This document shows positions 30,599 to 58,680 of a DNA stretch of 64,000 nt, piece by piece (position 1 is the first letter of the stretch; each line of letters starts with the position of its first letter). The notes beneath the pieces are model-generated. The model had not been told where the DNA came from, did no database searches, and saw nothing but the letters and a program-made list of their open reading frames with translations. The DNA is from Halobium salinum. Lineage in GTDB: Archaea; Halobacteriota; Halobacteria; Halobacteriales; Haloferacaceae. The translations under genes were made by a program, and so were the position numbers. The stretch is from positions 93,332 to 157,331 of the forward strand of contig NZ_JAODIW010000008.1 of assembly GCF_026586625.1 (NCBI RefSeq), written 5' to 3'.

Positions 30599-31246
30599 AT
30601 GGACCGAGCGCGTGCCATCGTCCTCCAGTCGGGCCTCGTCGGTCCCGACACCCTTCCCCTCCTCCTCGTCATCGCCGGCATCGGCCTCTCCATCGCGGAG
30701 GCGTTCGCCCCCGGCGCCCACTTCATCGTCGTCGGCGTTGCCCTGCTGGCCGCGGGGCTCGTCGGCCTCCTACTGGGCTCGTTCGCGAGCCCCATCGTCC
30801 TCGCGCTGCTCGTCTTTCTGTTCGGCGCGCTGGCGCTGTACGGCTACCGCGAGTTCGACCTCTACGGCGGGAAGGGGACGGGCCAGACCTCCGACTCCGA
30901 CTCGCTGACGGGGAAAACCGGCCGCGTCACCGAGCGCGTCACGCCCACCGAGGGACAGATAAAGCTCGACGAAGGGGGGTTCAACCCCTTCTACGCGGCA
31001 CGGTCGGTCGACGGCGAGATTCCCGTCGGCAACGAGGTGATGGTCGTCGACCCCGGCGGCGGCAACGTCGTCACCGTCGAGTCCCTCGACGTCGTCGAGC
31101 GCGACGAAATCGACCGCGAGCTGGCGCGAGAGCGCGAGCGGTCGGCCGCCCGAAACGGGGACGACGGCGAGGCGGCGTCGGAAGACGCCGGGACGGGCGG
31201 GGACGAGTCGGAGCGCGAAGCCGAAACCGAGTCCGAGCGCAACTGA
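30599..31246 (+). CDS. nfeD: NfeD-family membrane protein (stomatin operon partner)
   Basis: N-terminal TM helices plus a C-terminal OB-fold-like region (…LTGKTGRVTERVTPTEGQIKLDEGGFNPFYAARSVDGEIPVGNEVMVVD…). Lies immediately upstream of the SPFH gene. Confidence 0.7.
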   Translation: MDRARAIVLQSGLVGPDTLPLLLVIAGIGLSIAEAFAPGAHFIVVGVALLAAGLVGLLLGSFASPIVLALLVFLFGALALYGYREFDLYGGKGTGQTSDSDSLTGKTGRVTERVTPTEGQIKLDEGGFNPFYAARSVDGEIPVGNEVMVVDPGGGNVVTVESLDVVERDEIDRELARERERSAARNGDDGEAASEDAGTGGDESEREAETESERN

Positions 31247-31372: not shown

Positions 31373-32629
31373 ATGGCCCCCGTATCAGCCATCGTGCCGT
31401 TGCAGGCCCTTGGTATCGGCGTGGCAGTCGTCGGACTGCTGTTGCTGATCCTCGCGGTCGTCGTCGTGTTCTCGATGGTCGAGATCGTGAACGCCTACGA
31501 GAAGCGTGCCCTCACCGTGTTCGGCGAGTACCGGAAGCTCCTCGAACCCGGCATCAACTTCGTGCCGCCGTTCGTCTCCCGGACGTACCCCTTCGACATG
31601 CGCACCCAGACGCTCGACGTGCCGCGTCAGGAGGCCATCACCCGGGACAACTCGCCCGTGACCGCCGACGCCGTCGTCTACATCAAGGTGATGGACGCGA
31701 AGAAGGCGTTCCTCGAAGTCGAGGAGTACAAGGTCGCCGTCTCCAACCTCGCTCAGACCACCCTCCGTGCCGTCCTGGGCGACATGGAACTCGACGACAC
31801 GCTGAACAAGCGCCAGGAGATCAACGCCCGCATCCGCCGCGAACTCGACGAGCCAACCGACGAGTGGGGGATTCGCGTCGAGTCCGTCGAGGTGCGCGAA
31901 GTGAACCCGAGCGCCGACGTCCAGCAGGCGATGGAGCAGCAGACCTCCGCCGAGCGCCGCCGGCGCGCCATGATTCTCGAGGCGCAGGGTGAGCGCCGCA
32001 GTGCCGTGGAGTCCGCGGAGGGTGAGAAGCAGTCGAACATCATCCGCGCCCAGGGTGAGAAGCAGTCCCAGATTCTGGAAGCGCAGGGTGACGCCATCTC
32101 GACCGTCCTGCGTGCGAAGTCCGCCGAGTCGATGGGCGAGCGCGCCATCATCGACAAGGGGATGGAGACGCTCGAGAACATCGGCCAGTCCGAGTCGACG
32201 ACGTTCGTCCTGCCCCAGGAGCTCACCAGCCTCGTCGGCCGGTACGGCAAGCAGCTCTCCGGCAGCGACGTACAGGAGAAGGCCGGCCTCGACTCGCTCG
32301 ACTTCGACGAGGAGACCCGCGAGCTCATCGGTCTCGACGACATCGAGGAGATAATCGGACAGATAGACGAGGCCGCCGAGATGGACGTCGAACAGCTCGA
32401 ACAGGAGGCCGAAGCCGTCAAGGCCGGCGAAGGTGCCGACATGAAGAGCGCCGAGGAGGTCATCTCCGAGGCGAACGAGGAGGACGGTCTCGGCGACGGG
32501 TCGACCGCCGGCGGGAGCACGGCCAGCGCCGACGACACCGGTACCGCCACTGCCGACACCGCCGACGGCGCCGCCGCGGACGGCGAATCGGCCGCGACGG
32601 ACCGCGAGCCCGAGCCCGAGACGGAGTAG
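31373..32629 (+). CDS. SPFH/Band-7 (stomatin/prohibitin-like) protein with repeat-containing coiled-coil C-terminus
   Basis: N-terminal TM helix then the SPFH core (…LTVFGEYRKLLEPGINFVPPFVSRTYPFDMRTQTLDVPRQEAITRDNSPVTADAVVYIKV…). Internal AQGE(K/R)xS repeats and an acidic tail. Confidence 0.8.
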   Translation: MAPVSAIVPLQALGIGVAVVGLLLLILAVVVVFSMVEIVNAYEKRALTVFGEYRKLLEPGINFVPPFVSRTYPFDMRTQTLDVPRQEAITRDNSPVTADAVVYIKVMDAKKAFLEVEEYKVAVSNLAQTTLRAVLGDMELDDTLNKRQEINARIRRELDEPTDEWGIRVESVEVREVNPSADVQQAMEQQTSAERRRRAMILEAQGERRSAVESAEGEKQSNIIRAQGEKQSQILEAQGDAISTVLRAKSAESMGERAIIDKGMETLENIGQSESTTFVLPQELTSLVGRYGKQLSGSDVQEKAGLDSLDFDEETRELIGLDDIEEIIGQIDEAAEMDVEQLEQEAEAVKAGEGADMKSAEEVISEANEEDGLGDGSTAGGSTASADDTGTATADTADGAAADGESAATDREPEPETE

Positions 32630-32687: not shown

Positions 32688-33320
32688 ATGCCACGGGGGG
32701 AGGACTCGTCCGTCGACGAGGGGAAGCGGGCTACGCTCCGTCGGTTCGCGGCGCTCGGAGCGGCGACGCCGCTGGTCGGGCTCGGCGACGCGAAGGATGC
32801 CGACGGCGACGGCGCCGACCGTAGCGACGCCCGCGACGCCATCGTCGGCTACCTCGCCGCGACCCCCGGCGCGCACTTCTCGAAGATTCGCGACGACCTC
32901 CAACTGGGCACCGGTGAGACCCAGCACCACCTCCGGCGGCTGGGCTCGGCGGGAGTGGTCACGTCGCGCAAGGACGGCGACTACAGCCGGTTCTTCCCGA
33001 CGGGTCGCTTCTCGGAGTACGAGCAGGTCGCGCTGGGGTACCTCCGGCGTTCGACTCCCCGCGGGATGCTCATCGAACTCCTGCGGGACCCCGACGCGAC
33101 CGGGAGCGACCTCGCCGACGCGCTCGACGTGTCGCGCGCCACCGTCTCGAACTACGCCGCCGACCTCGACGAGGCGGGGCTGATGACCCGCGAGGACGGG
33201 TACGCCGTCGCCAAGCCGGAGGTCGTCATCACGCTCCTTCTCAGGTACGCCGACTCCTTCGGCGCCGACGCCGCGACGTTCGCGGCCGAGGCGGACCGGT
33301 ACATTCGGTTCGATCCGTAG
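32688..33320 (+). CDS. Putative winged-helix transcriptional regulator (two wHTH-like segments) with Tat-like N-terminal motif
   Basis: RATLRRFAALGAATPLVGLG at the N-terminus. wHTH-like IVGYLAATPGAHFSKIRDDLQLGTGETQHHLRRLGSAGVVTSRKDGDYSRFFP and a second …LIELLRDPDATGSDLADALDVSRATVSNYAADLDEAGLMTREDG…. Confidence 0.45.
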   Translation: MPRGEDSSVDEGKRATLRRFAALGAATPLVGLGDAKDADGDGADRSDARDAIVGYLAATPGAHFSKIRDDLQLGTGETQHHLRRLGSAGVVTSRKDGDYSRFFPTGRFSEYEQVALGYLRRSTPRGMLIELLRDPDATGSDLADALDVSRATVSNYAADLDEAGLMTREDGYAVAKPEVVITLLLRYADSFGADAATFAAEADRYIRFDP

Positions 33321-34261: not shown

Positions 34262-34525
34262 TCAGACCGTAACCTTCCAGGTCGTCCCCGAGGAGTAGCC
34301 CCACTTCTCGACGGACACGTCGAACTCGCCGTCGAGCAGAGGCGACATGTTGGCACCGACCTCCTTCGCCGTCAGGTCGAGCTCCTCGGCGATGAGCCGG
34401 GACTTGAAGTAGGTCTTCGTCGCCCCCTCCTCGCGGAGGTAGGCGAGGATTCGACGCTGTTTGTCGGTGAGGTCGGTGGTGGGGTCGGCAGCGGTTGCGG
34501 CGCCGGTCGCGGAAGTCGCGCTCAT
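34262..34525 (-). CDS. Small winged-helix protein, paralog A
   Basis: 87 aa from the internal ATG (MSATSATGAATAADPTTDLTDKQRRILAYLREEGATKTYFKSRLIAEELDLTAKEVGANMSPLLDGEFDVSVEKWGYSSGTTWKVTV). By eye it aligns with ORF 56819..57043 (RRILxYL…YF+…IAEx+xL+AKxVG…L…E…V…EKWG…TTW+VT). Confidence 0.5.
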   Translation of the reverse strand: MSATSATGAATAADPTTDLTDKQRRILAYLREEGATKTYFKSRLIAEELDLTAKEVGANMSPLLDGEFDVSVEKWGYSSGTTWKVTV

Positions 34526-34722
34526 ACATCTACGGAGGAGAGTATCTCCAAAAGGGGATTTGGTACGGGAGGTTAACACGGCGCCGTCGAGCGGTTTTTG
34601 CGTCGTGTGAAGGACGTGACCGGTGTGGCACCCCCGCCAGCGGACGACGACGAGGTCGACAGGTACAGTCGGCTAACGGGCCTGACGGTCGAGAGAGCGG
34701 GGGAGCGTGGCTGGCGACGGGG

Positions 34723-35142
34723 TCAGTGGTGTGGCTCGTCGGGACGCGGGTCCTCGAACTCGAGCGTACACCAGTGACAGAACCCCATCTCGGGGTCGAC
34801 GGGCCGGGCACAGGCGGGGCAGGTCGGTCCCTCGGTCCCCGCGTGACTCCGCCGGCCGAGGACGTACGCGTCGAATATCGAGAGCGAGAGCAGCACGAAC
34901 AGTGTGACGACGACCCACCGGGGCCACTGCTGGACGTCGAGCAGGAACCCCGGCTCCATGAGTCGGGCCGGGTCGAACGCCATCGTGAGGAGTACCAGCG
35001 AGGCGCCCGCAGAGAGCGCGAACCAGGCGACGGCGCGTCGCCACTCGCGTAGGAAGAGGTGGCCGAGGCCGGCGACGCCGACGACGGCGCCGATGGCGCC
35101 GATCATGGCGGCCACGAACGCACGACGGCTCGTATCGGTCAT
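34723..35142 (-). CDS. Small membrane protein with C-terminal zinc ribbon
   Basis: 139 aa from the internal ATG (MTDTSRRAFVAAMIGAIGAVVGVAGLG…). Three TM segments, then CPACARPVDPEMGFCHWC. Confidence 0.45.
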   Translation of the reverse strand: MTDTSRRAFVAAMIGAIGAVVGVAGLGHLFLREWRRAVAWFALSAGASLVLLTMAFDPARLMEPGFLLDVQQWPRWVVVTLFVLLSLSIFDAYVLGRRSHAGTEGPTCPACARPVDPEMGFCHWCTLEFEDPRPDEPHH

Positions 35143-35249: not shown

Positions 35250-35942
35250 TCAGTCGCCCCCGAGCAGGTCCACCAGCGTCCGGAGCGTCCCGAGGTCGTA
35301 CTGGCCCGGCGCGGTGGCGTCGGCCGGGTCGACCGGCGCGTAGCCGATTCGCGACCCGTAGACGGGGGCGACGGCGCGGGTGTGCCGTCCCGGCTCCCCC
35401 ATCGCCATCGTGGCCGGCGTCCCGCCGTCGGCCGCGACCGCGTAGGTCGCCTGCAACAGCGCGAGCGCGTCGCCGCGGTCGGTCGCCGTCGTCGCGAGCT
35501 TCCCCACGTCGCCGGCGTCGCAGGCGGCCGAGAGCTGTTCGCGGAGCGCGTCGGGACGCGCCGTCCCCTCGAAGTCGTGGACCGAGGCGACGACGGCGAC
35601 GCCCGACTCCCGGGCGTGCTCGCGCAGCGCGTCCGCCTCCGCCGCGTCGACGCCGCCCCGTCCCTCGAAGCAGGCCGCTTCGACGTCGACCGCCTCGACG
35701 GCGTCGTGGTCGACCGCCTCGGCGAGGACGGCGAGTCGCCCCTCGTCGTCGGCCTCGCCGCCCTCCCACGTCGCCCGGTTGGTCGCGAGAAGCGGCAGCG
35801 TCCCGTCGTAGTCGTCGAGCGCCGCGAGCGGGTCGTCCGCGAGGTCCATTCGGAACTCCACGGCGTCAGCGTCGTCGCGGGCGGCGGCCTCGTCGTCGAG
35901 GTCCGCCGTCGAGGCCGCGAGCACGAACGAATCGAACTCCAT
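35250..35942 (-). CDS. aroD: 3-dehydroquinate dehydratase, type I
   Basis: MEFDSFVLAASTADLDD…VEFRMDL…LLATNRATWEGG… matches the AroD type I pattern. Internal ATG used. Confidence 0.8.
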   Translation of the reverse strand: MEFDSFVLAASTADLDDEAAARDDADAVEFRMDLADDPLAALDDYDGTLPLLATNRATWEGGEADDEGRLAVLAEAVDHDAVEAVDVEAACFEGRGGVDAAEADALREHARESGVAVVASVHDFEGTARPDALREQLSAACDAGDVGKLATTATDRGDALALLQATYAVAADGGTPATMAMGEPGRHTRAVAPVYGSRIGYAPVDPADATAPGQYDLGTLRTLVDLLGGD

Positions 35943-36161: not shown

Positions 36162-37331
36162 TCACCCCTCGAAGGGGGTGTAGTCGACGCGGTACCGACG
36201 GGCGGGTGCGGTGGTCTCGCGGGTGCCACCCTCGCCCGAGTCGGTGTCGTCGATGCGGTCGACGCCGTCGACGGCGTAGAACCGGATGCGGCGCTCCTGC
36301 TTCGTGACGACGGGCACGTCGTAGTGGACCGCCTCGTAGTTCGGGTCGCGGTCGCGGTCGGCGAGGAAGTCGCGGTGTCGCTCGAGGCGGGCGCTGAGGT
36401 GCCGGTCGGAGCGCTCGGCGAGACCGCTCCGGCGGTCGTCGAAGGCGGCGACGAAGTCGGGGTCGAGTTCGTAGCCGACCGAGTCACGAGCCGCGAGCAT
36501 CGCGGCGAGGGTCGTCGTCCCCGTCCCCCAGAAGGGGTCGAGGACGGTGTCGCCGTACGCGGAGTACATCCGAACCAACCGGAGCGGGAGTTCGAGGGGG
36601 TACGCCGCAGAGCGGTCGCGGACGTCCGTCGCCCCCTCCGATTCGGTCGCGTCGTCCGCGTCACCCGCTCCCCCGGTGCCCCCCGCTCCGGTGCCGGCTC
36701 CGCTGTCGGCCGCGTCCTCGCGGTCGGCGAGCGTCTGCGTCGTCCCGCCCAACTCCCACAGGTCGGAGAACCAGCGGTTGCGCTCCTCCCAGAAGAAGGC
36801 GCTCTCGTAGCGGGCGTCGTCGCCGGGGGGGAACCGGCGGGTCTCCCCCTTCCGGAAGACGAGGACGTACTCGTGTTCGAGCGTGACGTAGGCGTTCGAG
36901 GGGAGCATCCCCGAACCCATGAACTTCGTGAGGCTGTTGGTCGGCTTGCGCCAGAGGATATCGGGGAGCGCTCGTAGGCCCCGTTCACGGAGGGCGGCGA
37001 GGACGCGGGCGTGATTGGGGTACTGCCGGAACCCGTCGTCGAGCGAGCGGGTCGCGTCGCCGACGTTGACGCAGGCGATTCCCCCCGGCGCGAGCACCCG
37101 AACGACCTCGTCCCAGACGGCGTCGAGCGTCTCGTGCATCCGCTCGAACGCCGTCTCCCCGTCGCCGCGGTCGAGCGCGTCCCGGACCGCCGGCTCCTGC
37201 TCGGCGAACAGGTCGTCCCACATCTCTATCATCGGGTACGGCGGGGAGGTGACGACGAGGTCGACGGCGCCGTCGTCGACGGCGGCCATGTCGGCGGCGT
37301 CGGCGACGTAGAGGCGGTGCTCGGTTCGCAC
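36162..37331 (-). CDS. Site-specific DNA methyltransferase (N4-cytosine/N6-adenine, beta-class), apparently orphan
   Basis: Motif IV DLVVTSPPY lies near the N-terminus and motif I (VLDPFWGTGTT) near the C-terminus, the beta-class order. A low-complexity insert (…DSGAGTGAGGTGGAGDADD…). No restriction endonuclease candidate is adjacent. Confidence 0.8.
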   Translation of the reverse strand: MRTEHRLYVADAADMAAVDDGAVDLVVTSPPYPMIEMWDDLFAEQEPAVRDALDRGDGETAFERMHETLDAVWDEVVRVLAPGGIACVNVGDATRSLDDGFRQYPNHARVLAALRERGLRALPDILWRKPTNSLTKFMGSGMLPSNAYVTLEHEYVLVFRKGETRRFPPGDDARYESAFFWEERNRWFSDLWELGGTTQTLADREDAADSGAGTGAGGTGGAGDADDATESEGATDVRDRSAAYPLELPLRLVRMYSAYGDTVLDPFWGTGTTTLAAMLAARDSVGYELDPDFVAAFDDRRSGLAERSDRHLSARLERHRDFLADRDRDPNYEAVHYDVPVVTKQERRIRFYAVDGVDRIDDTDSGEGGTRETTAPARRYRVDYTPFEG

Positions 37332-37574: not shown

Positions 37575-38129
37575 ATGACCACTCGAGTCGGCGTCGGCAG
37601 CGGCAACCCGGTGAAGCGACGGGCGGTCGAAGCGGTGTTGAACGACGGGAACGGCGGCTTCGCCGAGGCGTCGGTGGAGGCCGTCCCGGTCGACTCCGGC
37701 GTGAGCGAACAGCCCGAGGGCCACGCGGAGACCCTCGAAGGCGCCGAGAACCGCGCGCGGGCCGTCGTCGAGGCGGGGTCGGACCTCGGAGTCGGCGTGG
37801 AGGGCGGCGTGGCGACGTTGGACGCCGGTGCCGGAGACGCCCGAGGCGACCTCTACCTCGTCATGTGGGCCGCCGTCACCGACGGCGACCGCTGGGGCCG
37901 GGGGTCGGGGCCGGCGCTCGCGCTCCCCGCTGACGTCGCCGAGCGCGTGCGCGACGGCGAGGAACTCGGCCCGGTGATGGACGACACGCTCGGCGAGGAG
38001 CACGTCGCGCGAAAGCAGGGTGCGGTCGGGGCGTTCACCGGCGGTCGCGTCGACCGCGCGGACGCGTTGGCGACGGCGGTCGCGGGGGCGCTCGGACCGT
38101 TCGTCACGGACCACTACCGAACGCGCTGA
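37575..38129 (+). CDS. Inosine/xanthosine triphosphatase (YjjX/DUF84 family non-canonical NTP pyrophosphatase)
   Basis: MTTRVGVGSGNPVKRRAVEAVL…DSGVSEQPEGHAETLEGAENRARAV… matches the YjjX family pattern. Confidence 0.65.
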   Translation: MTTRVGVGSGNPVKRRAVEAVLNDGNGGFAEASVEAVPVDSGVSEQPEGHAETLEGAENRARAVVEAGSDLGVGVEGGVATLDAGAGDARGDLYLVMWAAVTDGDRWGRGSGPALALPADVAERVRDGEELGPVMDDTLGEEHVARKQGAVGAFTGGRVDRADALATAVAGALGPFVTDHYRTR

Positions 38130-38145
38130 CGGACGCCGCCGGGAC

Positions 38146-40035
38146 TCAGTCCTGGGCGGACTCCGCGCCCTCGACCCGCTCTCCCACGTCCGCGGACTCG
38201 TCGACCGCGGTGGTGAGCGAGACGTTGAGCGACGCCATCGAGACGACCCCGCCGGCGAGGGTGACGAGGTTCTTCACGGCGTGGTCGACGAACGCGGCGC
38301 CGACCACGACGGCGGGAGAGATGGCCGGGACGAGGACGACGACGAGCACGGTGAAGGCGGCCTCGTACAGTCCGATGCCGCCGGGCGACAGCGGGAGCAC
38401 CTTCGCGAGGTTGCCGACGCTCACCGCGAAGAAGGAGACGGCGAGCAGGTAGCCGAGCGGGACGCCGGCGGGGATTCCGAACGCCAGCAGGACGAGGAAC
38501 GCGGTGAGCACGTCGAGCGTCCAGATGGCGAGACTCGACAGGCCGACGCGGGCGAACGCGCCGGGCGTGCCGGCCGCCCGCTGGAGGTCGCCGACGAACC
38601 GCTCGACGACCCCGGCGACCATGTCCGCGTAGGAGTCGTCACTGAGGCGAGCGACGACCGGGCGCACGAGGTTGCGCTCGGAGCGCGCGGAGGCGACGAT
38701 GGCGACGACGGCGCCGACCGCGGCGACGCCGACGAACGCGGCGACGCCGGCCGCGACGCGAGCCGCGTTCTTGTCCACGTCGCCGACGGTGCCCGAGCCG
38801 GTGATGCCGACGATTAGCTCCGTGGTGCGGCCGGTGGCGACGAGTCCGACGAAGACGAGGCCAGCGAGTGCGACCAGCGAGAGCAGGTCGAACACCCGCT
38901 CTGCGGCGAGGGAGGCGAACCCGGAGGCGTACGGGATGCGCCGGCGGGCCTTCACGACGTACGCGCGCACGGCGTCGCCGGCGCGGGCCGGGAAGACGAG
39001 GTTCCCCGTCTGGCTGATGAAGATGGCCCCCGTCAGGAAGCCGACCGACTCGCGATACCCCAACTCGGAGAGGATGTCGCGGTAGCGCGTCCCCCGGAGG
39101 GGCCACGAGAACAGGTAGACCAGCGCCGCGCCGGCGATGAGCGCCGGGTCGGCCTCGCTGGCGCGGGCGACAACCTGCTCGAAGTCGATGTACAGCGTCA
39201 TCAGCCCGACCGCGACGACCGTCATCAGGATGCCGACGGCCATCGAGACCTTCCGAGTGATACGGGGTTGAACCGACAGCTCCCACCACGTCCGGAGAAC
39301 CTGACTCCCCATCCCGAGCACGTCGCGGACGAGGTCGACTTTCGTGTCACCCTTCGGCGTCCAGTCGACCGGGAACTCGGCGACGCGGTACCCCCGACGC
39401 TGAGCGCGCACGAGCAGTTCGGTGTCCCAGAACCAGTGGTTGTCGCGGATGTCGTGGTGGAGCACCTCGAACGCCTCCCGCGAGACGGCCTTGAATCCGC
39501 ACTGGTGGTCACGTAGGGAAGACCGGAGGAAGAGCCGCACGAACCCGTTGTAGACGCGGCTCGGGACGCCCCGTTTCGGCGGTCGGTCCGCGGTGCGGCC
39601 GGGCATCCAGCGCGAGCCGGTCGCCACGTCGGCCTCGCCGGAGCGCACCGTCTCGACGAGCTCCTCGAGGTGACGCATGTCGGTCGCGAGGTCGGTGTCG
39701 AAGTACACCAGCACGTCGCCGTCGGCGGCGGCGAAGGCCCGCTCCAAGGCGCCGCCGCGACCGAGGCGCTCGTCGCTGTGGAAGTGTCGGACCCGGGCGT
39801 CCTCGGCGGCGAGGCGACCGGCGATGTCGGGCGTGGCGTCGTCACAGCCGTCCTCCGCAACCATCACCTCGAAGCTCCCGCTCGGAAGGAAGCGTGAGAG
39901 CGTCGACAGCGTCTCGCGGACCGTCCCCTCAATGGTCTGCGCCTCGTTGTACGCGGGGAGGACGACGCTCACCTCGACGCTCGCGGGGGACCGGCGAGCC
40001 TCAGGTGCGTCGGCCGCGGCGGCCGGGCCACTCAT
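38146..40035 (-). CDS. GT2 dolichyl-phosphate hexosyltransferase fused to flippase-like (lysyl-PG synthase TM-type) membrane domain; AglD-like
   Basis: The N-terminal GT-A domain (VSVVLPAYNEAQTIEGTV…) has DxD motifs (EDGCDD and YFDTDLA). The C-terminal roughly 330 aa has about 8 TM segments and a PGGIGLYEAAF motif. Internal ATG (MSGPAAAAD…) used. Confidence 0.65.
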   Translation of the reverse strand: MSGPAAAADAPEARRSPASVEVSVVLPAYNEAQTIEGTVRETLSTLSRFLPSGSFEVMVAEDGCDDATPDIAGRLAAEDARVRHFHSDERLGRGGALERAFAAADGDVLVYFDTDLATDMRHLEELVETVRSGEADVATGSRWMPGRTADRPPKRGVPSRVYNGFVRLFLRSSLRDHQCGFKAVSREAFEVLHHDIRDNHWFWDTELLVRAQRRGYRVAEFPVDWTPKGDTKVDLVRDVLGMGSQVLRTWWELSVQPRITRKVSMAVGILMTVVAVGLMTLYIDFEQVVARASEADPALIAGAALVYLFSWPLRGTRYRDILSELGYRESVGFLTGAIFISQTGNLVFPARAGDAVRAYVVKARRRIPYASGFASLAAERVFDLLSLVALAGLVFVGLVATGRTTELIVGITGSGTVGDVDKNAARVAAGVAAFVGVAAVGAVVAIVASARSERNLVRPVVARLSDDSYADMVAGVVERFVGDLQRAAGTPGAFARVGLSSLAIWTLDVLTAFLVLLAFGIPAGVPLGYLLAVSFFAVSVGNLAKVLPLSPGGIGLYEAAFTVLVVVLVPAISPAVVVGAAFVDHAVKNLVTLAGGVVSMASLNVSLTTAVDESADVGERVEGAESAQD

Positions 40036-55431: not shown

Positions 55432-56241
55432 TCACTCCCGACGGTCGCCGAGCGCCGGGAACTCCTCGCGGACGGCGTCGACGCGCTCGGGGTCGACCTC
55501 CGCCGTGACGAGCGCGGGGTCGTCGCCGGCGCTCGCGAGCGTCGTCCCCCACGGGTCGTAGACGGTGGAGCGCCCGAGCAGCGTCGCCGACTCGAACTCG
55601 GTTGCCCCGTTGACCGTCGCGACGTAACAGAGGTTCTCGATGGCGCGGGCGCGCGGGAGCGTCGTCCAGTGCTCCACCCGGGGGTAGGGCCACGCGCTGG
55701 GGACGAGCACGAGCGTCGCGCCGGCGTCGGCCAGTTCGCGGTACAGTTCGGGAAAGCGTAGGTCGTAGCAGGTGGTGACGCCGACCTCGAACCCCTCGAA
55801 GCGCGTCGTCTCGACGGCGTCCCCGGGGGTGAGCAGACGCGACTCGGCGGATTCGTAGCCGAACAGGTGATGCTTGCGGTAGACCGCTCGGCGTTTCCCG
55901 TCCCGGTCGTAGAACACCGCCGTGTTCGCGAGCCCCTCCGCGGCGGGGACGTCGACGCCGGCCTCGGCGCTCTCGGCGAGGTCCTCGACGTGGCTCCCGG
56001 CGAGCAGGCCGACGCCGTGGTCGGCGGCGAGGTCGGCGAGGCGGGAGAACGTCGGTCCGTCGAGCCCCTCGGCGTCGCGGGCGTACGACTCGAAGGCGAA
56101 GTAGCCGACGGTGAACAGCTCCGGGAGGGCGACGAGGTCGGCCCCCCTGCTCGCGGCGTCCGCGACGGCCGCGGCGGCGCGGTCGACGTTCCCCTGCACG
56201 TCGCCGGCCTCCTGGTCGAGCTGTGCGAGTGCGAGCTTCAT
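55432..56241 (-). CDS. Carbon-nitrogen hydrolase (nitrilase superfamily)
   Basis: MKLALAQLD…LVALPELFTVGY (Glu), …AVYRKHHLF… (Lys), and …GVTTCYDLRFPE… (Cys). Confidence 0.85.
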   Translation of the reverse strand: MKLALAQLDQEAGDVQGNVDRAAAAVADAASRGADLVALPELFTVGYFAFESYARDAEGLDGPTFSRLADLAADHGVGLLAGSHVEDLAESAEAGVDVPAAEGLANTAVFYDRDGKRRAVYRKHHLFGYESAESRLLTPGDAVETTRFEGFEVGVTTCYDLRFPELYRELADAGATLVLVPSAWPYPRVEHWTTLPRARAIENLCYVATVNGATEFESATLLGRSTVYDPWGTTLASAGDDPALVTAEVDPERVDAVREEFPALGDRRE

Positions 56242-56669
56242 GCTTTCAGTTCCAGGTCGCGCCGGAGCGCCGCCTCGAGGTTGTCGAGCTCGCGGTCGAG
56301 ATTGCGCTTGAAGAACTTCTCGACGCCGGGGAGTTTCCCGTCGACGACGAACTCGTTCTGTAGCGTCGTCCCCGACTCGGTCGACTCGATGGTGTGCTCG
56401 CCGGTGACGCGCATCGCACGGGAGCGCCCGACGAACTTCACGTAGCGGGGCTCCTCGCGGGTCACGTCCTCGGTCTCGACGGCGACCGTCGAGGAGATGA
56501 GGGGGATGGGGAGTTTCACGTGCCAGGTGGCCGTACGACCGTCGTCACCGACGTCGTACTCGTCGACGACGCTGATGGCGGCGGCTCGTTTCTCGGGGTC
56601 GGCGATGAACGCCCAGACCTCCTCGGGGTCGGCGTCGAACTCGAAGGTCCGGCTGACGCGGACAGTCAT
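56238..56669 (-). CDS. SRPBCC (START/Bet v1-like, polyketide-cyclase-type) family protein
   Basis: 143 aa. …FEFDADPEEVWAFIADPEK… is typical of SRPBCC proteins. Its stop overlaps the nitrilase gene start. Confidence 0.65.
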   Translation of the reverse strand: MTVRVSRTFEFDADPEEVWAFIADPEKRAAAISVVDEYDVGDDGRTATWHVKLPIPLISSTVAVETEDVTREEPRYVKFVGRSRAMRVTGEHTIESTESGTTLQNEFVVDGKLPGVEKFFKRNLDRELDNLEAALRRDLELKA

Positions 56670-56818
56670 GAACGAGGGTACGGACGAGAGCGGTAAAAGC
56701 GTGGTAGCTCGCGGACGCTATCGTACATCGTCTATCGTCTGGGTCCGTCGACGACTCCCGTGGTCGGTCTCTCGGGACACGGGGACGGTGGCCTCGGGAC
56801 ACGGAGAGGAGGTCTCGA

Positions 56819-57043
56819 TTAGCTGAGCGTGACGCGCCAGGTCGTCGAGCGGGCCCGACCCCACTTCTCGATGTCGACGTCCTCCGACTCCTCTGCGAGC
56901 CGCGGCAGCCGGGAGCCGACCTGCTTCGCCGAGAGCCCGATGGCTTCGGCGATGTTCTTCGCGCGGAAGTATCGCTCGCCACCGGTTACGCTGTCGTGGA
57001 GGTAGGAGAGGATGCGTCGGTCCTCGTCGCTCATTTCGCTCAT
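56819..57043 (-). CDS. Small winged-helix protein, paralog B
   Basis: 74 aa (MSEMSDEDRRILSYLHDSVTGGERYFRAKNIAEAIGLSAKQVGSRLPRLAEESEDVDIEKWGRARSTTWRVTLS), alignable with ORF 34262..34525. Confidence 0.5.
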   Translation of the reverse strand: MSEMSDEDRRILSYLHDSVTGGERYFRAKNIAEAIGLSAKQVGSRLPRLAEESEDVDIEKWGRARSTTWRVTLS

Positions 57044-57157
57044 TCCCGGCGACGATTGGAGCGTGAGGATATTAACGGTTGTCGCTTACCAGTATGCTTG
57101 CTTGTCGGGACCGGTCCGCCCGGCCCGCTCGGTCTACCAGTCCGGCGGTCCGACGGG

Positions 57158-57337
57158 CTACCAGTACGCCTGCGCACCGACGACCGCGAGCGCGGCCGCC
57201 GTCATCGCCGCGGCGAACCCCCACGCCGCCGTCGACTGGTCCCCCACGAGCATCACGACCGCGCCGCCGAGCGCGAGCACCGAGCAGACGACGGCGAGGC
57301 CGACGCCCATGTCCGAATCCGCTGTGGCCGTTTCCAT
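57158..57337 (-). CDS. Small hypothetical membrane protein
   Basis: METATADSDMGVGLAVVCSVLALGGAVVMLVGDQSTAAWGFAAAMTAAALAVVGAQAYW has two TM segments. Weak call. Confidence 0.25.
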   Translation of the reverse strand: METATADSDMGVGLAVVCSVLALGGAVVMLVGDQSTAAWGFAAAMTAAALAVVGAQAYW

Positions 57338-57483
57338 ACCCGGAGGTGCGCCGGGCCGACCTAATACGTTGTGTTCCTGTCCGCTCCGGGGCCGACGCGC
57401 GTCTGACACCCCCGTCGGCTCCCCCTCGGCGCCGCTACCTCGAGCCGCGTGAGATTTATACGATTGTATGACTGTCTCCGATT

Positions 57484-58680
57484 ATGGATAGAATTCGGGC
57501 ACTGCTGTCGGGCACTCGTCGGTTGGTGACCGTCGCGGCCGTCCTCGTCCTCGTCGCCGCCGGCGTGGCGGTGGCGACGGGCGTCTTCGGCGCCCCGTCG
57601 GTGGCGGGCGTCGACAACCGTTTCGGCCCCGTCGACGACGAGACGACCGCCGTCGAGACCGACCTCCACGTGTCGAACCCGAACCCACTCGGCGTGTCGT
57701 TCGGGGACGCGACGGTCGACTACGCGGTGTCGATGAACGGGGTCGGGATGGCCGAAGGGACGAAGTCGGGCGTCGCGCTCGACCGCGGAGCGTCGACCCT
57801 CGCCTTTCGCACCGACATGCACAACGAGCGCATCCCCGACTGGTGGGTGAGCCACGTCCGAAACGACGAGCGGACGACGCTGACCGTCGACGCGTCGGTC
57901 TCCTCGCCCCTCCTCGGCGGAGCGGGCGTCGACGCGCCGGCGGTCGAGCGCGAGGTCGAAACGGACCTCGTCGGCGGGTTCGCCTCGAACGAGACGCGGC
58001 CGGTGAACGCGAGCCGGCCGCTCGTCTCGGACCCCGTCCTCTACGTCAACGAGACCGACGCCGCGTGGGGCGAGGTGAACGACTCCGCGACGCCCATCGA
58101 CACGAACTTCACGCTCTACAACCCGAAGCCGGTCCCCGTCGCGCTGACGGAGGTCGGCTACACCGTGACGATGAACGACGTGACCGTCGGCCAGGGGGCA
58201 TCCGACCGCACGTACGTCGTCCCGAGCGGGGAGGCTCGCACGCTGGAGACGACGACGCGAATCGACAACTCGGAGCTCGACGAGTGGTGGGTCAGCCACC
58301 TCCAGCGGAACCAGACCACCGACCTCCGCATCGAGTTCTACGCGACGCTCCGAGTCGGCGGCGACTCGATTCGCGTCCCGCTGGACTCGCTGACCTACGA
58401 GAAGACGTTCGAGACGGACGTGTTCGGGACGAAGGCCGACGGGGGCGAGGTCGCGAACGCGAGTGGAGGGTCGACGACCGCGACCACCACGGCGACCGAC
58501 GGCGAGTCGGGGTCCGAGGGGACGACGGGTACGACGGCCGGCGGGTCGACGACGACCGCGACCACCACGACCGACGCCGGCGGTCTGTTCGGAGGCGGCG
58601 ACGGGAACGGGAGCGCCGGCGACGGCGGCGGACCGGGGACGACCACGACCGACGACGGCCTGCTCGGCCTCCGGTCGTAG
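57484..58680 (+). CDS. Signal-anchored LEA_2 (LEA14/WHy-like) tandem-domain protein with Thr/Gly-rich C-tail
   Basis: N-terminal TM anchor, then two repeats of the LEA_2-type pattern (…DLHVSNPNPLGVSFGDATVDYAVSMNGVGMAEG… and …NFTLYNPKPVPVALTEVGYTVTMNDVTVGQGAS…). C-terminal …GGSTTATTTATDGESGSEGTTGTTAGGSTTTATTTTD…. Confidence 0.6.
   Translation: MDRIRALLSGTRRLVTVAAVLVLVAAGVAVATGVFGAPSVAGVDNRFGPVDDETTAVETDLHVSNPNPLGVSFGDATVDYAVSMNGVGMAEGTKSGVALDRGASTLAFRTDMHNERIPDWWVSHVRNDERTTLTVDASVSSPLLGGAGVDAPAVEREVETDLVGGFASNETRPVNASRPLVSDPVLYVNETDAAWGEVNDSATPIDTNFTLYNPKPVPVALTEVGYTVTMNDVTVGQGASDRTYVVPSGEARTLETTTRIDNSELDEWWVSHLQRNQTTDLRIEFYATLRVGGDSIRVPLDSLTYEKTFETDVFGTKADGGEVANASGGSTTATTTATDGESGSEGTTGTTAGGSTTTATTTTDAGGLFGGGDGNGSAGDGGGPGTTTTDDGLLGLRS

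Follow-up and report, generated by a model that had tools for sequence, protein, structure and literature searches.

DUF7123 genes A and B of Halobium salinum: probable ancient stand-alone winged-helix paralogs and candidate DNA-binding regulators

Two small winged-helix genes of family DUF7123

We analysed a stretch of 64,000 nucleotides of Halobium salinum DNA (contig NZ_JAODIW010000008.1, positions 93,332 to 157,331 of the forward strand; hereafter the window, within which all positions are counted) and focused on two small minus-strand genes, here called A and B, that encode proteins of the Pfam family DUF7123. Each follows a small membrane protein gene on the same strand, across a gap of 197 bp for A and 114 bp for B, in keeping with the 110-200 bp given in a preliminary description of the window, which read the two gene pairs as a duplicated module of a membrane sensor and a DNA-binding protein. 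The comparisons presented below suggest instead that A and B are old paralogs that stand alone, each with a predicted promoter of its own and a membrane neighbour acquired in a different way.

The two proteins, previously aligned by eye, are identical at 29 of 72 positions (40%, with 69% positives; BLASTP as a single comparison, E 6e-20), and the motifs picked out in that first alignment (RRIL.YL, YF[KR], AK[EQ]VG, EKWG and TTW[KR]VT) are invariant columns of the DUF7123 family alignment. Both score above the DUF7123 (PF23438) gathering cutoff of 27 bits, A with 134.1 and B with 58.2. The preferred start of gene A is the ATG at 34525; the open reading frame can be extended to a GTG at 34579, but this longer form is unsupported because the homologs are 78-90 amino acids (aa) long and share an MS(A/T)T N-terminus and a conserved ATGAGC start. 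The A protein combines a variable N-terminal tail of about 16 aa, rich in Ser, Thr and Ala, with a conserved core of 70 aa.

Orthologs of A are 65-90% identical across approximately 27 genera, including Natronomonas, Haloferax, Halorarius, Halorarum and Salinirubrum, and orthologs of B are 67-96% identical across many named genera, including Natronoarchaeum, Halogeometricum, Halovivax, Haloferax, Halobellus and Haloplanus. Each orthogroup is 65-85% identical among genera, and the two are roughly 40-47% identical to each other. These comparisons indicate that A and B are old paralogs that form two separate orthogroups, with no recent duplication.

A family profile search of 1.84 billion representative proteins returned 446 clusters (50% identity) at E <= 0.001 and 206 at E <= 1e-10, nearly all of them single-domain proteins of 60-130 aa. 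All hits that bear an organism name belong to Halobacteria, and no mention of DUF7123, or of the membrane protein families DUF7525 and DUF7575 described below, was found in the literature searched; the earlier view of the family as haloarchaea-specific and uncharacterised thus holds. In NCBI and UniRef the homologs already bear the name 'DUF7123 family protein', and all four proteins of the two gene pairs score above the curated cutoffs of Pfam DUF7123, DUF7525 (PF24369) or DUF7575 (PF24460), which are catalogue entries without assigned function. A viral origin of DUF7123 was considered and rejected, as the family alignment retrieved no relatives from IMG/VR and the sole PHROGs match, for B, was weak and to a generic 'transcriptional regulator'.

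Predicted fold and DNA binding

An AlphaFold2 model of A, built from a 66-sequence alignment, has the H1-b1-H2-H3-b2-b3 order and the beta-hairpin wing of a winged helix-turn-helix in minimal form, with a core predicted local distance difference test score of about 90 and a disordered N-terminal tail. Together with the shared Pfam family, this model bears out the initial assignment of both proteins to the winged helices. The invariant residues R25, K54, K74 and T81/T82 map to H1, the start of H3 and the wing, and A and B are more basic than most proteins of the window, whose median isoelectric point is 4.55, with values of 5.0 for the core of A and 5.8 for B. We further note a metagenomic protein of 275 aa in which DUF5786, DUF7123 and a helix-hairpin-helix lie in one chain, and which could be genuine or could stem from a gene-calling error. 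From the fold, the basic residues in H1, H3 and the wing, the isoelectric points and the helix-hairpin-helix fusion, we infer that A and B are most likely DNA-binding proteins, and the candidate operator pair upstream of A (see below) is a further, indirect hint.

A profile search of PDB sequences gave no relative of solved structure below E 0.5. The fold matches of DUF7123 include DsrD, eS25, ScpB and TFE, all of them non-regulator winged helices, and this would be consistent with a different reading, in which DUF7123 recognises no specific DNA sequence and is instead a protein-binding or general nucleic-acid-binding module, for instance a component of chromatin or a cofactor that assists the transcription machinery. 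A role of this kind would explain conservation at a housekeeping level, and it agrees with the 70-85% identity across genera, with core promoters that are conserved across genera, with the slow evolution of B relative to its neighbours and with the translational coupling of a plasmid subfamily to a DUF63 membrane protein (both described below). The fold matches are generic, however, and more than 400 diverged clusters together with many plasmid copies form the pattern expected of ordinary regulators, so that we consider the non-specific module quite unlikely.

Putative core promoters of A and B

Both genes are preceded by a putative core promoter (Table 1). Upstream of A, the B recognition element (BRE)-like GTACCAAA is followed by the TATA-like CCTTTTGG, and the TTTT of this promoter lies at -28..-25 from the ATG, which points to a leaderless or near-leaderless mRNA. 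Across A loci the TATA box drifts in sequence (CTTTTGG, CTGATAGG, CTATTA, CTAAGG and others), with the ATG about 25-30 nt after it, and a GTACCAA(A) element keeps a fixed register upstream of A in 79 of 81 loci. The promoter of B, in which AACCGTTAATAT comprises BRE and TATA and the TTAA lies at about -32..-29 from the ATG, is far more tightly conserved than the TATA box of A: (G)AAACCGTTAAG occupies the same place in nearly all B loci, a C(C/G)TA(C/G) element follows about 13 nt further on, and the TTAA mostly falls 28-34 nt before the ATG. Indeed, the conserved B promoter almost fills the gap between the stop of the upstream DUF7525 gene and the ATG of B, which has a median of 60 bp across B loci.

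Within the window, the DUF7525 gene and the SRPBCC gene that flank B carry TATA-like sequences of their own (TATTA and TTTTA, respectively, each at -29..-25), so that all four genes (A, DUF7525, B and SRPBCC) have a TATA-like box 25-33 bp ahead of the start codon. Because A and B each have their own conserved BRE and TATA, neither would need an upstream promoter, and the position of the TATA boxes suggests that each is most likely transcribed separately, as a leaderless message. A GTTAA half-site, which the family might conceivably recognise, recurs in the TATA region of B (CCGTTAAG) and in the operator of A described below (GTTAACC); we claim no relationship from it, as it is too short to be told from an ordinary TATA box.

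The membrane protein neighbours belong to unrelated families

The membrane proteins beside A and B correspond to their first descriptions, that beside A being a protein of 139 aa with hydrophobic segments and a C-terminal CPAC...CHWC ribbon and that beside B a protein of about 59 aa with two transmembrane (2-TM) segments. The former is now assigned to DUF7575 (41.5 bits against a cutoff of 28.5) and the latter to DUF7525. These are different families without similarity, as judged by Pfam and by phmmer searches that find only their own kind, and, the families being unrelated, no module was duplicated. Conservation of the adjacency in other genomes, which had been named beforehand as one of the observations on which the proposal would stand or fall, gave opposite answers for the two genes.

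For A, we compared 80 ortholog loci, taken from genomes that represent species of about 27 named genera, with genes called by a codon-position GC caller validated on the window and the products clustered. At the 76 other loci where A was called, no DUF7575 homolog sits immediately upstream on the strand of A. The usual gene upstream of A is a divergent glycosyltransferase-2 (GT2)/LPG_synthase_TM protein (39 of 69 loci with room), and the convergent neighbours downstream are an HVO_0163-type regulator (42 of 65), an SPFH/Band 7 protein (47 of 65) and an NfeD-like protein. A TRAM-domain gene upstream of A in Natronomonas-type loci was examined as an equivalent of the membrane gene and rejected, its product being soluble. 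Searches of the A loci with phmmer and jackhmmer place DUF7575 homologs about 3 kb away, on the opposite strand and beside aroD, in three Natrialbaceae loci, and none of the few remaining hits is directly upstream of A.

DUF7575 has a genomic context of its own. In Halegenticoccus, Halogeometricum and Haloferax it ends a string of [TFB], N6_N4 DNA methylase, aroD and DUF7575 that faces a convergent dehydroquinate synthase II gene, and DUF7123 is absent from the vicinity of DUF7575 at these loci. Outside the window, the order aroD > DUF7575 > DUF7123 was found only in Halobium palmae and two metagenomic relatives. DUF7575 homologs are also poorly conserved (38-69% identity); in H. palmae the DUF7575 protein is 65% identical to its window counterpart and A 90%. 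Within the window, the methylase-aroD-DUF7575 block (37331-34723) separates A from the NTPase/glycosyltransferase pair, and this pair, which adjoins A directly in most genera, is both displaced and inverted relative to A, pointing to a local rearrangement. These comparisons indicate that the adjacency of A and DUF7575 is a genus-level accident, that the DUF7575 gene belongs with the methylase-aroD string, and that a Halobium-level rearrangement brought the whole block next to A.

Table 1. Positions of genes and sequence elements in the window.
Feature	Position	Strand	Basis or remark
Gene A, DUF7123 winged-helix protein, 87 aa	34262-34525	minus	Open reading frame; ACFO0N_18955 (100% match)
Gene B, DUF7123 winged-helix protein, 74 aa	56819-57043	minus	Open reading frame; ACFO0N_18835 (100% match)
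Putative core promoter of A, GTACCAAA (BRE-like) then CCTTTTGG (TATA-like)	34548-34566	minus	Sequence
Proximal 16-bp motif, GTTAnnCnnnnGTACC (GTTAACCTCCCGTACC), directly adjoining the BRE	34562-34577	minus	Motif scan and alignment
Conserved A-rich/CG block AAAAnCGCAnGACnGCG, directly 5' of the proximal motif	34582-34599	minus	Conserved alignment columns
Distal 16-bp motif (GTTAGCCGACTGTACC), 100 bp further upstream than the proximal one	34662-34677	minus	Motif scan
Putative core promoter of B, AACCGTTAATAT (BRE and TATA)	57069-57080	minus	Sequence
DUF7575 membrane gene, 139 aa, hydrophobic segments and C-terminal CPAC...CHWC zinc ribbon	34723-35142	minus	Pfam PF24460
aroD, type I 3-dehydroquinase	35250-35942	minus	Pfam; conserved upstream partner of the DUF7575 gene
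N6_N4 DNA methylase	36162-37331	minus	Pfam; conserved upstream partner of the DUF7575 gene
NTPase_I-T (DUF84) and GT2/LPG_synthase_TM genes	37575-39972		Adjoin A directly in most genera
NfeD-like gene	30599-31246	plus	Weak Pfam match, under cutoff; conserved convergent neighbour of A
SPFH/Band 7 gene	31373-32629	plus	Pfam; conserved convergent neighbour of A
HVO_0163-type double winged helix-turn-helix regulator	32688-33320	plus	Pfam; conserved convergent neighbour of A
DUF7525 membrane gene, 59 aa, 2-TM	57158-57337	minus	Pfam PF24369, 70 bits against a cutoff of 27
SRPBCC/Polyketide_cyc2 gene	56238-56669	minus	Conserved downstream neighbour of B
CN_hydrolase gene	55432-56241	minus	4-nt overlap with the SRPBCC gene

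For B, the sample comprised 80 metagenomic loci and the named genomes of Haloferax, Halovivax and Natronoarchaeum, and neighbours were scored with hidden Markov models built from the neighbour clusters. DUF7525 stands directly upstream of B on the same strand in 70 of the 76 loci with enough sequence, and in 35 of 39 B clusters at 90% identity; SRPBCC is directly downstream in 71 of 77 loci and CN_hydrolase comes next in 43 of 64. The order DUF7525 > B > SRPBCC > CN-hydrolase was confirmed by independent gene calls and Pfam labels in the three named genera, and the only overlapping pair of this string in the window is SRPBCC/CN-hydrolase, by 4 nt. The proposed adjacency thus stands for B and falls for A. 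DUF7525 beside B is a member of an old and widespread gene string, a real conserved synteny that does not look like a sensor-regulator pair.

Median identities to the window proteins across this neighbourhood (55432-58680) are 78% for B, 67% for CN-hydrolase, 66% for SRPBCC, 53% for LEA_2 and 44% for DUF7525, making B the slowest-evolving gene of its own neighbourhood. They bear on a further reading, in which B would be a local regulator of DUF7525, SRPBCC, CN-hydrolase and perhaps the divergent LEA_2 gene, and A a regulator with a separate regulon. The gene order kept across families of Halobacteria favours this reading, as do the plasmid DUF7123 members described below, which sit inside metal-resistance operons in the manner typical of local regulators. 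B, however, is better conserved than its putative targets (44-67%), and the short gaps of the string hold no repeated operator-like motif beyond BRE and TATA. We therefore regard a strictly local role of B as doubtful.

A plasmid subfamily coupled to a membrane protein

DUF7123 genes are also found on 26 haloarchaeal plasmids, at 34-48% identity (tblastn of B against PLSDB), and the six plasmid proteins that were checked all pass the Pfam cutoff, with 34-108 bits. On Haloarcula marismortui pNG600, Halorubrum pCBA1229, Halobaculum XH14 and Salinigranum rubrum, a gene for a 333-aa DUF63 membrane protein begins within the DUF7123 gene, with an overlap of 4 nt, and the pair usually comes directly after a heavy-metal P-type ATPase gene. 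About 10 further plasmids carry an identically scoring DUF7123 copy, and the DUF7123-DUF63 element is common to plasmids of more than 10 genera. Other plasmid copies lie near methyltransferase, integrase or nuclease-family genes. DUF7123 is thus employed in more than one kind of setting, and an operon with a membrane protein is real, but it involves a third subfamily and a different membrane protein family.

These plasmid operons, together with the same-strand adjacency at both window loci and the recurrence of DUF7525 beside B, are the points in favour of the module first proposed, in which each membrane protein would sense a signal and hold or release its cognate winged-helix protein, in an anti-sigma-like or signal-relay fashion, and the two-gene unit would have been duplicated. 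The unrelatedness of DUF7575 and DUF7525 speaks against a duplication, and the A-DUF7575 adjacency is missing both from the 76 other A loci and from the DUF7575 loci of three other genera. At locus B, the 59-aa DUF7525 protein has little beyond two hydrophobic helices and a short acidic stretch in front of them; it contains no soluble domain and so appears to lack the means to hold a cytoplasmic partner. It is also far less conserved than B (44% against 78%), and each gene has its own predicted promoter. Neither pair shows the properties of a sensor-regulator couple in these comparisons, and we judge the duplicated module to be an improbable account of A and B.

A phased pair of 16-bp motifs upstream of A

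The 197-bp gap upstream of A is the most conserved non-coding DNA of the region. Directly upstream of the GTACCAA(A) element lies GTGTTAACCnnnC, and the two together form the 16-bp motif GTTAnnCnnnnGTACC, which recurs as a distal copy on the same strand (Table 1). Both window copies are exact, and they are the sole matches with at most one mismatch in the 64 kb. A same-strand pair is found in 52 of the 81 A loci, and a single copy (at most one mismatch) in 21 more. In 45 loci the members of the pair are 79-82 bp apart, in four 89-91 bp and in two 99-100 bp; one locus is an outlier, and the Halobium-type loci all have 100-101 bp. The pair is conserved across the approximately 27 genera. Outside the sites upstream of A, about 1.2 Mb of fetched sequence holds 26 one-mismatch matches and no exact match, and in 582 kb of non-A loci the motif turns up only in the three Halobium-type loci. 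The phased pair of motifs at A is, as an observation, new.

A structured RNA in this gap was considered and rejected, as RNAalifold predicted no pairs among 22 upstream regions and, even with a permissive E-value, no Rfam match in the A gap reached or approached a gathering score. The motif pair is more likely an operator pair at the DNA level: the spacing shifts by about 10 bp, or roughly one helical turn, which suggests that one protein or complex probably binds both candidate sites while their rotational setting stays the same. With the proximal site immediately next to the BRE, either activation or repression could result; in Haloferax, the single winged-helix factor OxsR activates or represses according to the position of its site relative to BRE and TATA (PMC9426492).

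Three smaller observations concern these elements. In a few genera, a third copy of the motif with one mismatch lies on the strand of A near the 3' end of the gene, at about +200 to +280 from the start of the A core; the window has none. The AAAAnCGCAnGACnGCG block, read on the opposite strand, is a T-run that could serve a divergent promoter. A-like genes of Natrinema and Haloterrigena (66-79% identity) stand without the GTACCAA element and without the usual synteny, and they may be extra A-type paralogs of Natrialbaceae.

Interpretation

The explanation that we favour, with a probability of roughly 60% for the whole, is that A and B are ancient stand-alone paralogs of minimal winged-helix form, each made from its own leaderless promoter and each acting as a small DNA-binding regulator. 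A would be controlled through two direct GTTAnnCnnnnGTACC sites on its own strand, the proximal one touching the BRE and the distal one 80, 90 or 100 bp further upstream, with one protein or complex bound to both. The simplest candidate for this binder is the A protein itself, in an autoregulatory loop, which we propose tentatively and regard as the least certain step. B might regulate its own conserved neighbourhood or have a broader role.

Several observations weigh against this explanation. No T-rich terminator is visible in the gap upstream of A or of B, so that read-through from the membrane protein genes is possible. The adjacency of B and DUF7525, at 92%, exceeds chance synteny. In the plasmid subfamily, translation is coupled to that of a membrane protein, which makes a membrane link possible for part of the family. 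Small winged helices also act as protein adaptors or RNA binders, as the presence of DsrD, eS25 and ScpB among the fold matches illustrates. Finally, the motif pair could instead be bound by a different factor, for example the neighbouring HVO_0163-type regulator or a particular TFB paralog. A bolder variant of the proposal combines tight autoregulation of A through the phased sites with a role of A and B that is general rather than that of ordinary local regulators, as cofactors of haloarchaeal transcription or chromatin. We think this a long shot; if it were true, the 65-85% identity across genera would mark a missing core component specific to Halobacteria.

Relation to known regulators and significance

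The nearest functional analogues of A and B may be small single-domain winged-helix regulators, exemplified by ST1889, OxsR-type factors and PapI/FaeA/PefI. The last are stand-alone co-regulators of about 70 aa in enterobacterial fimbrial operons, and the action of PapI in these bacteria is exerted via Lrp at methylated GATC sites. A and B fall outside the PapI/FaeA family (PF04703), B scoring 18.8 bits (E 0.002) against a cutoff of 20.7 and A giving no match. The small single-domain archaeal winged helix-turn-helix protein ST1889 of Sulfurisphaera tokodaii (PDB 2d1h) is only 15% identical. OxsR is a haloarchaeal single-winged-helix factor of the TrmB family with extra flanking helices and a thiol-based sensor role (PMC9426492); DUF7123 shows neither of these two properties, and A and B have no TrmB or MarR match above threshold. 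At 74-87 aa, they also have no second domain for an effector or for dimerisation. Some homologs carry Joint Genome Institute labels of Lrp/AsnC, MarR or ArsR, but B stays below the cutoffs of the closest models (HTH_AsnC-type, 19.5 against 27; HTH_24, 16 against 21.9) and A matches none. The resemblance of DUF7123 to the Z-alpha domains of ADAR1, PKZ and E3L is structural only: H3 of DUF7123 reads AK[EQ]VG, and the profile search of PDB sequences reaches them at a non-significant E of about 1.1-1.2.

A and B are thus very small winged-helix proteins that occur in all haloarchaeal genera sampled and are among the slowest-evolving of their neighbourhoods. The phased dual 16-bp site at A offers a concrete and directly testable handle on a possible new class of haloarchaeal regulator, and the DUF7525-B-SRPBCC-CN-hydrolase string and the plasmid DUF7123-DUF63 operons provide two more contexts for assigning functions to several DUF families. 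The duplicated sensor-regulator module, in the form first proposed, is not upheld and is of little consequence.

Two minor observations concern the block that separates A from its usual neighbours. The N6_N4 DNA methylase may be similar to the orphan CTAG methyltransferase known from haloarchaea. In the DUF7575 protein, the N-terminus (35119-35142, minus strand) reads MTDTSRRAFVAAM, a twin-arginine-like motif that precedes the first hydrophobic segment.

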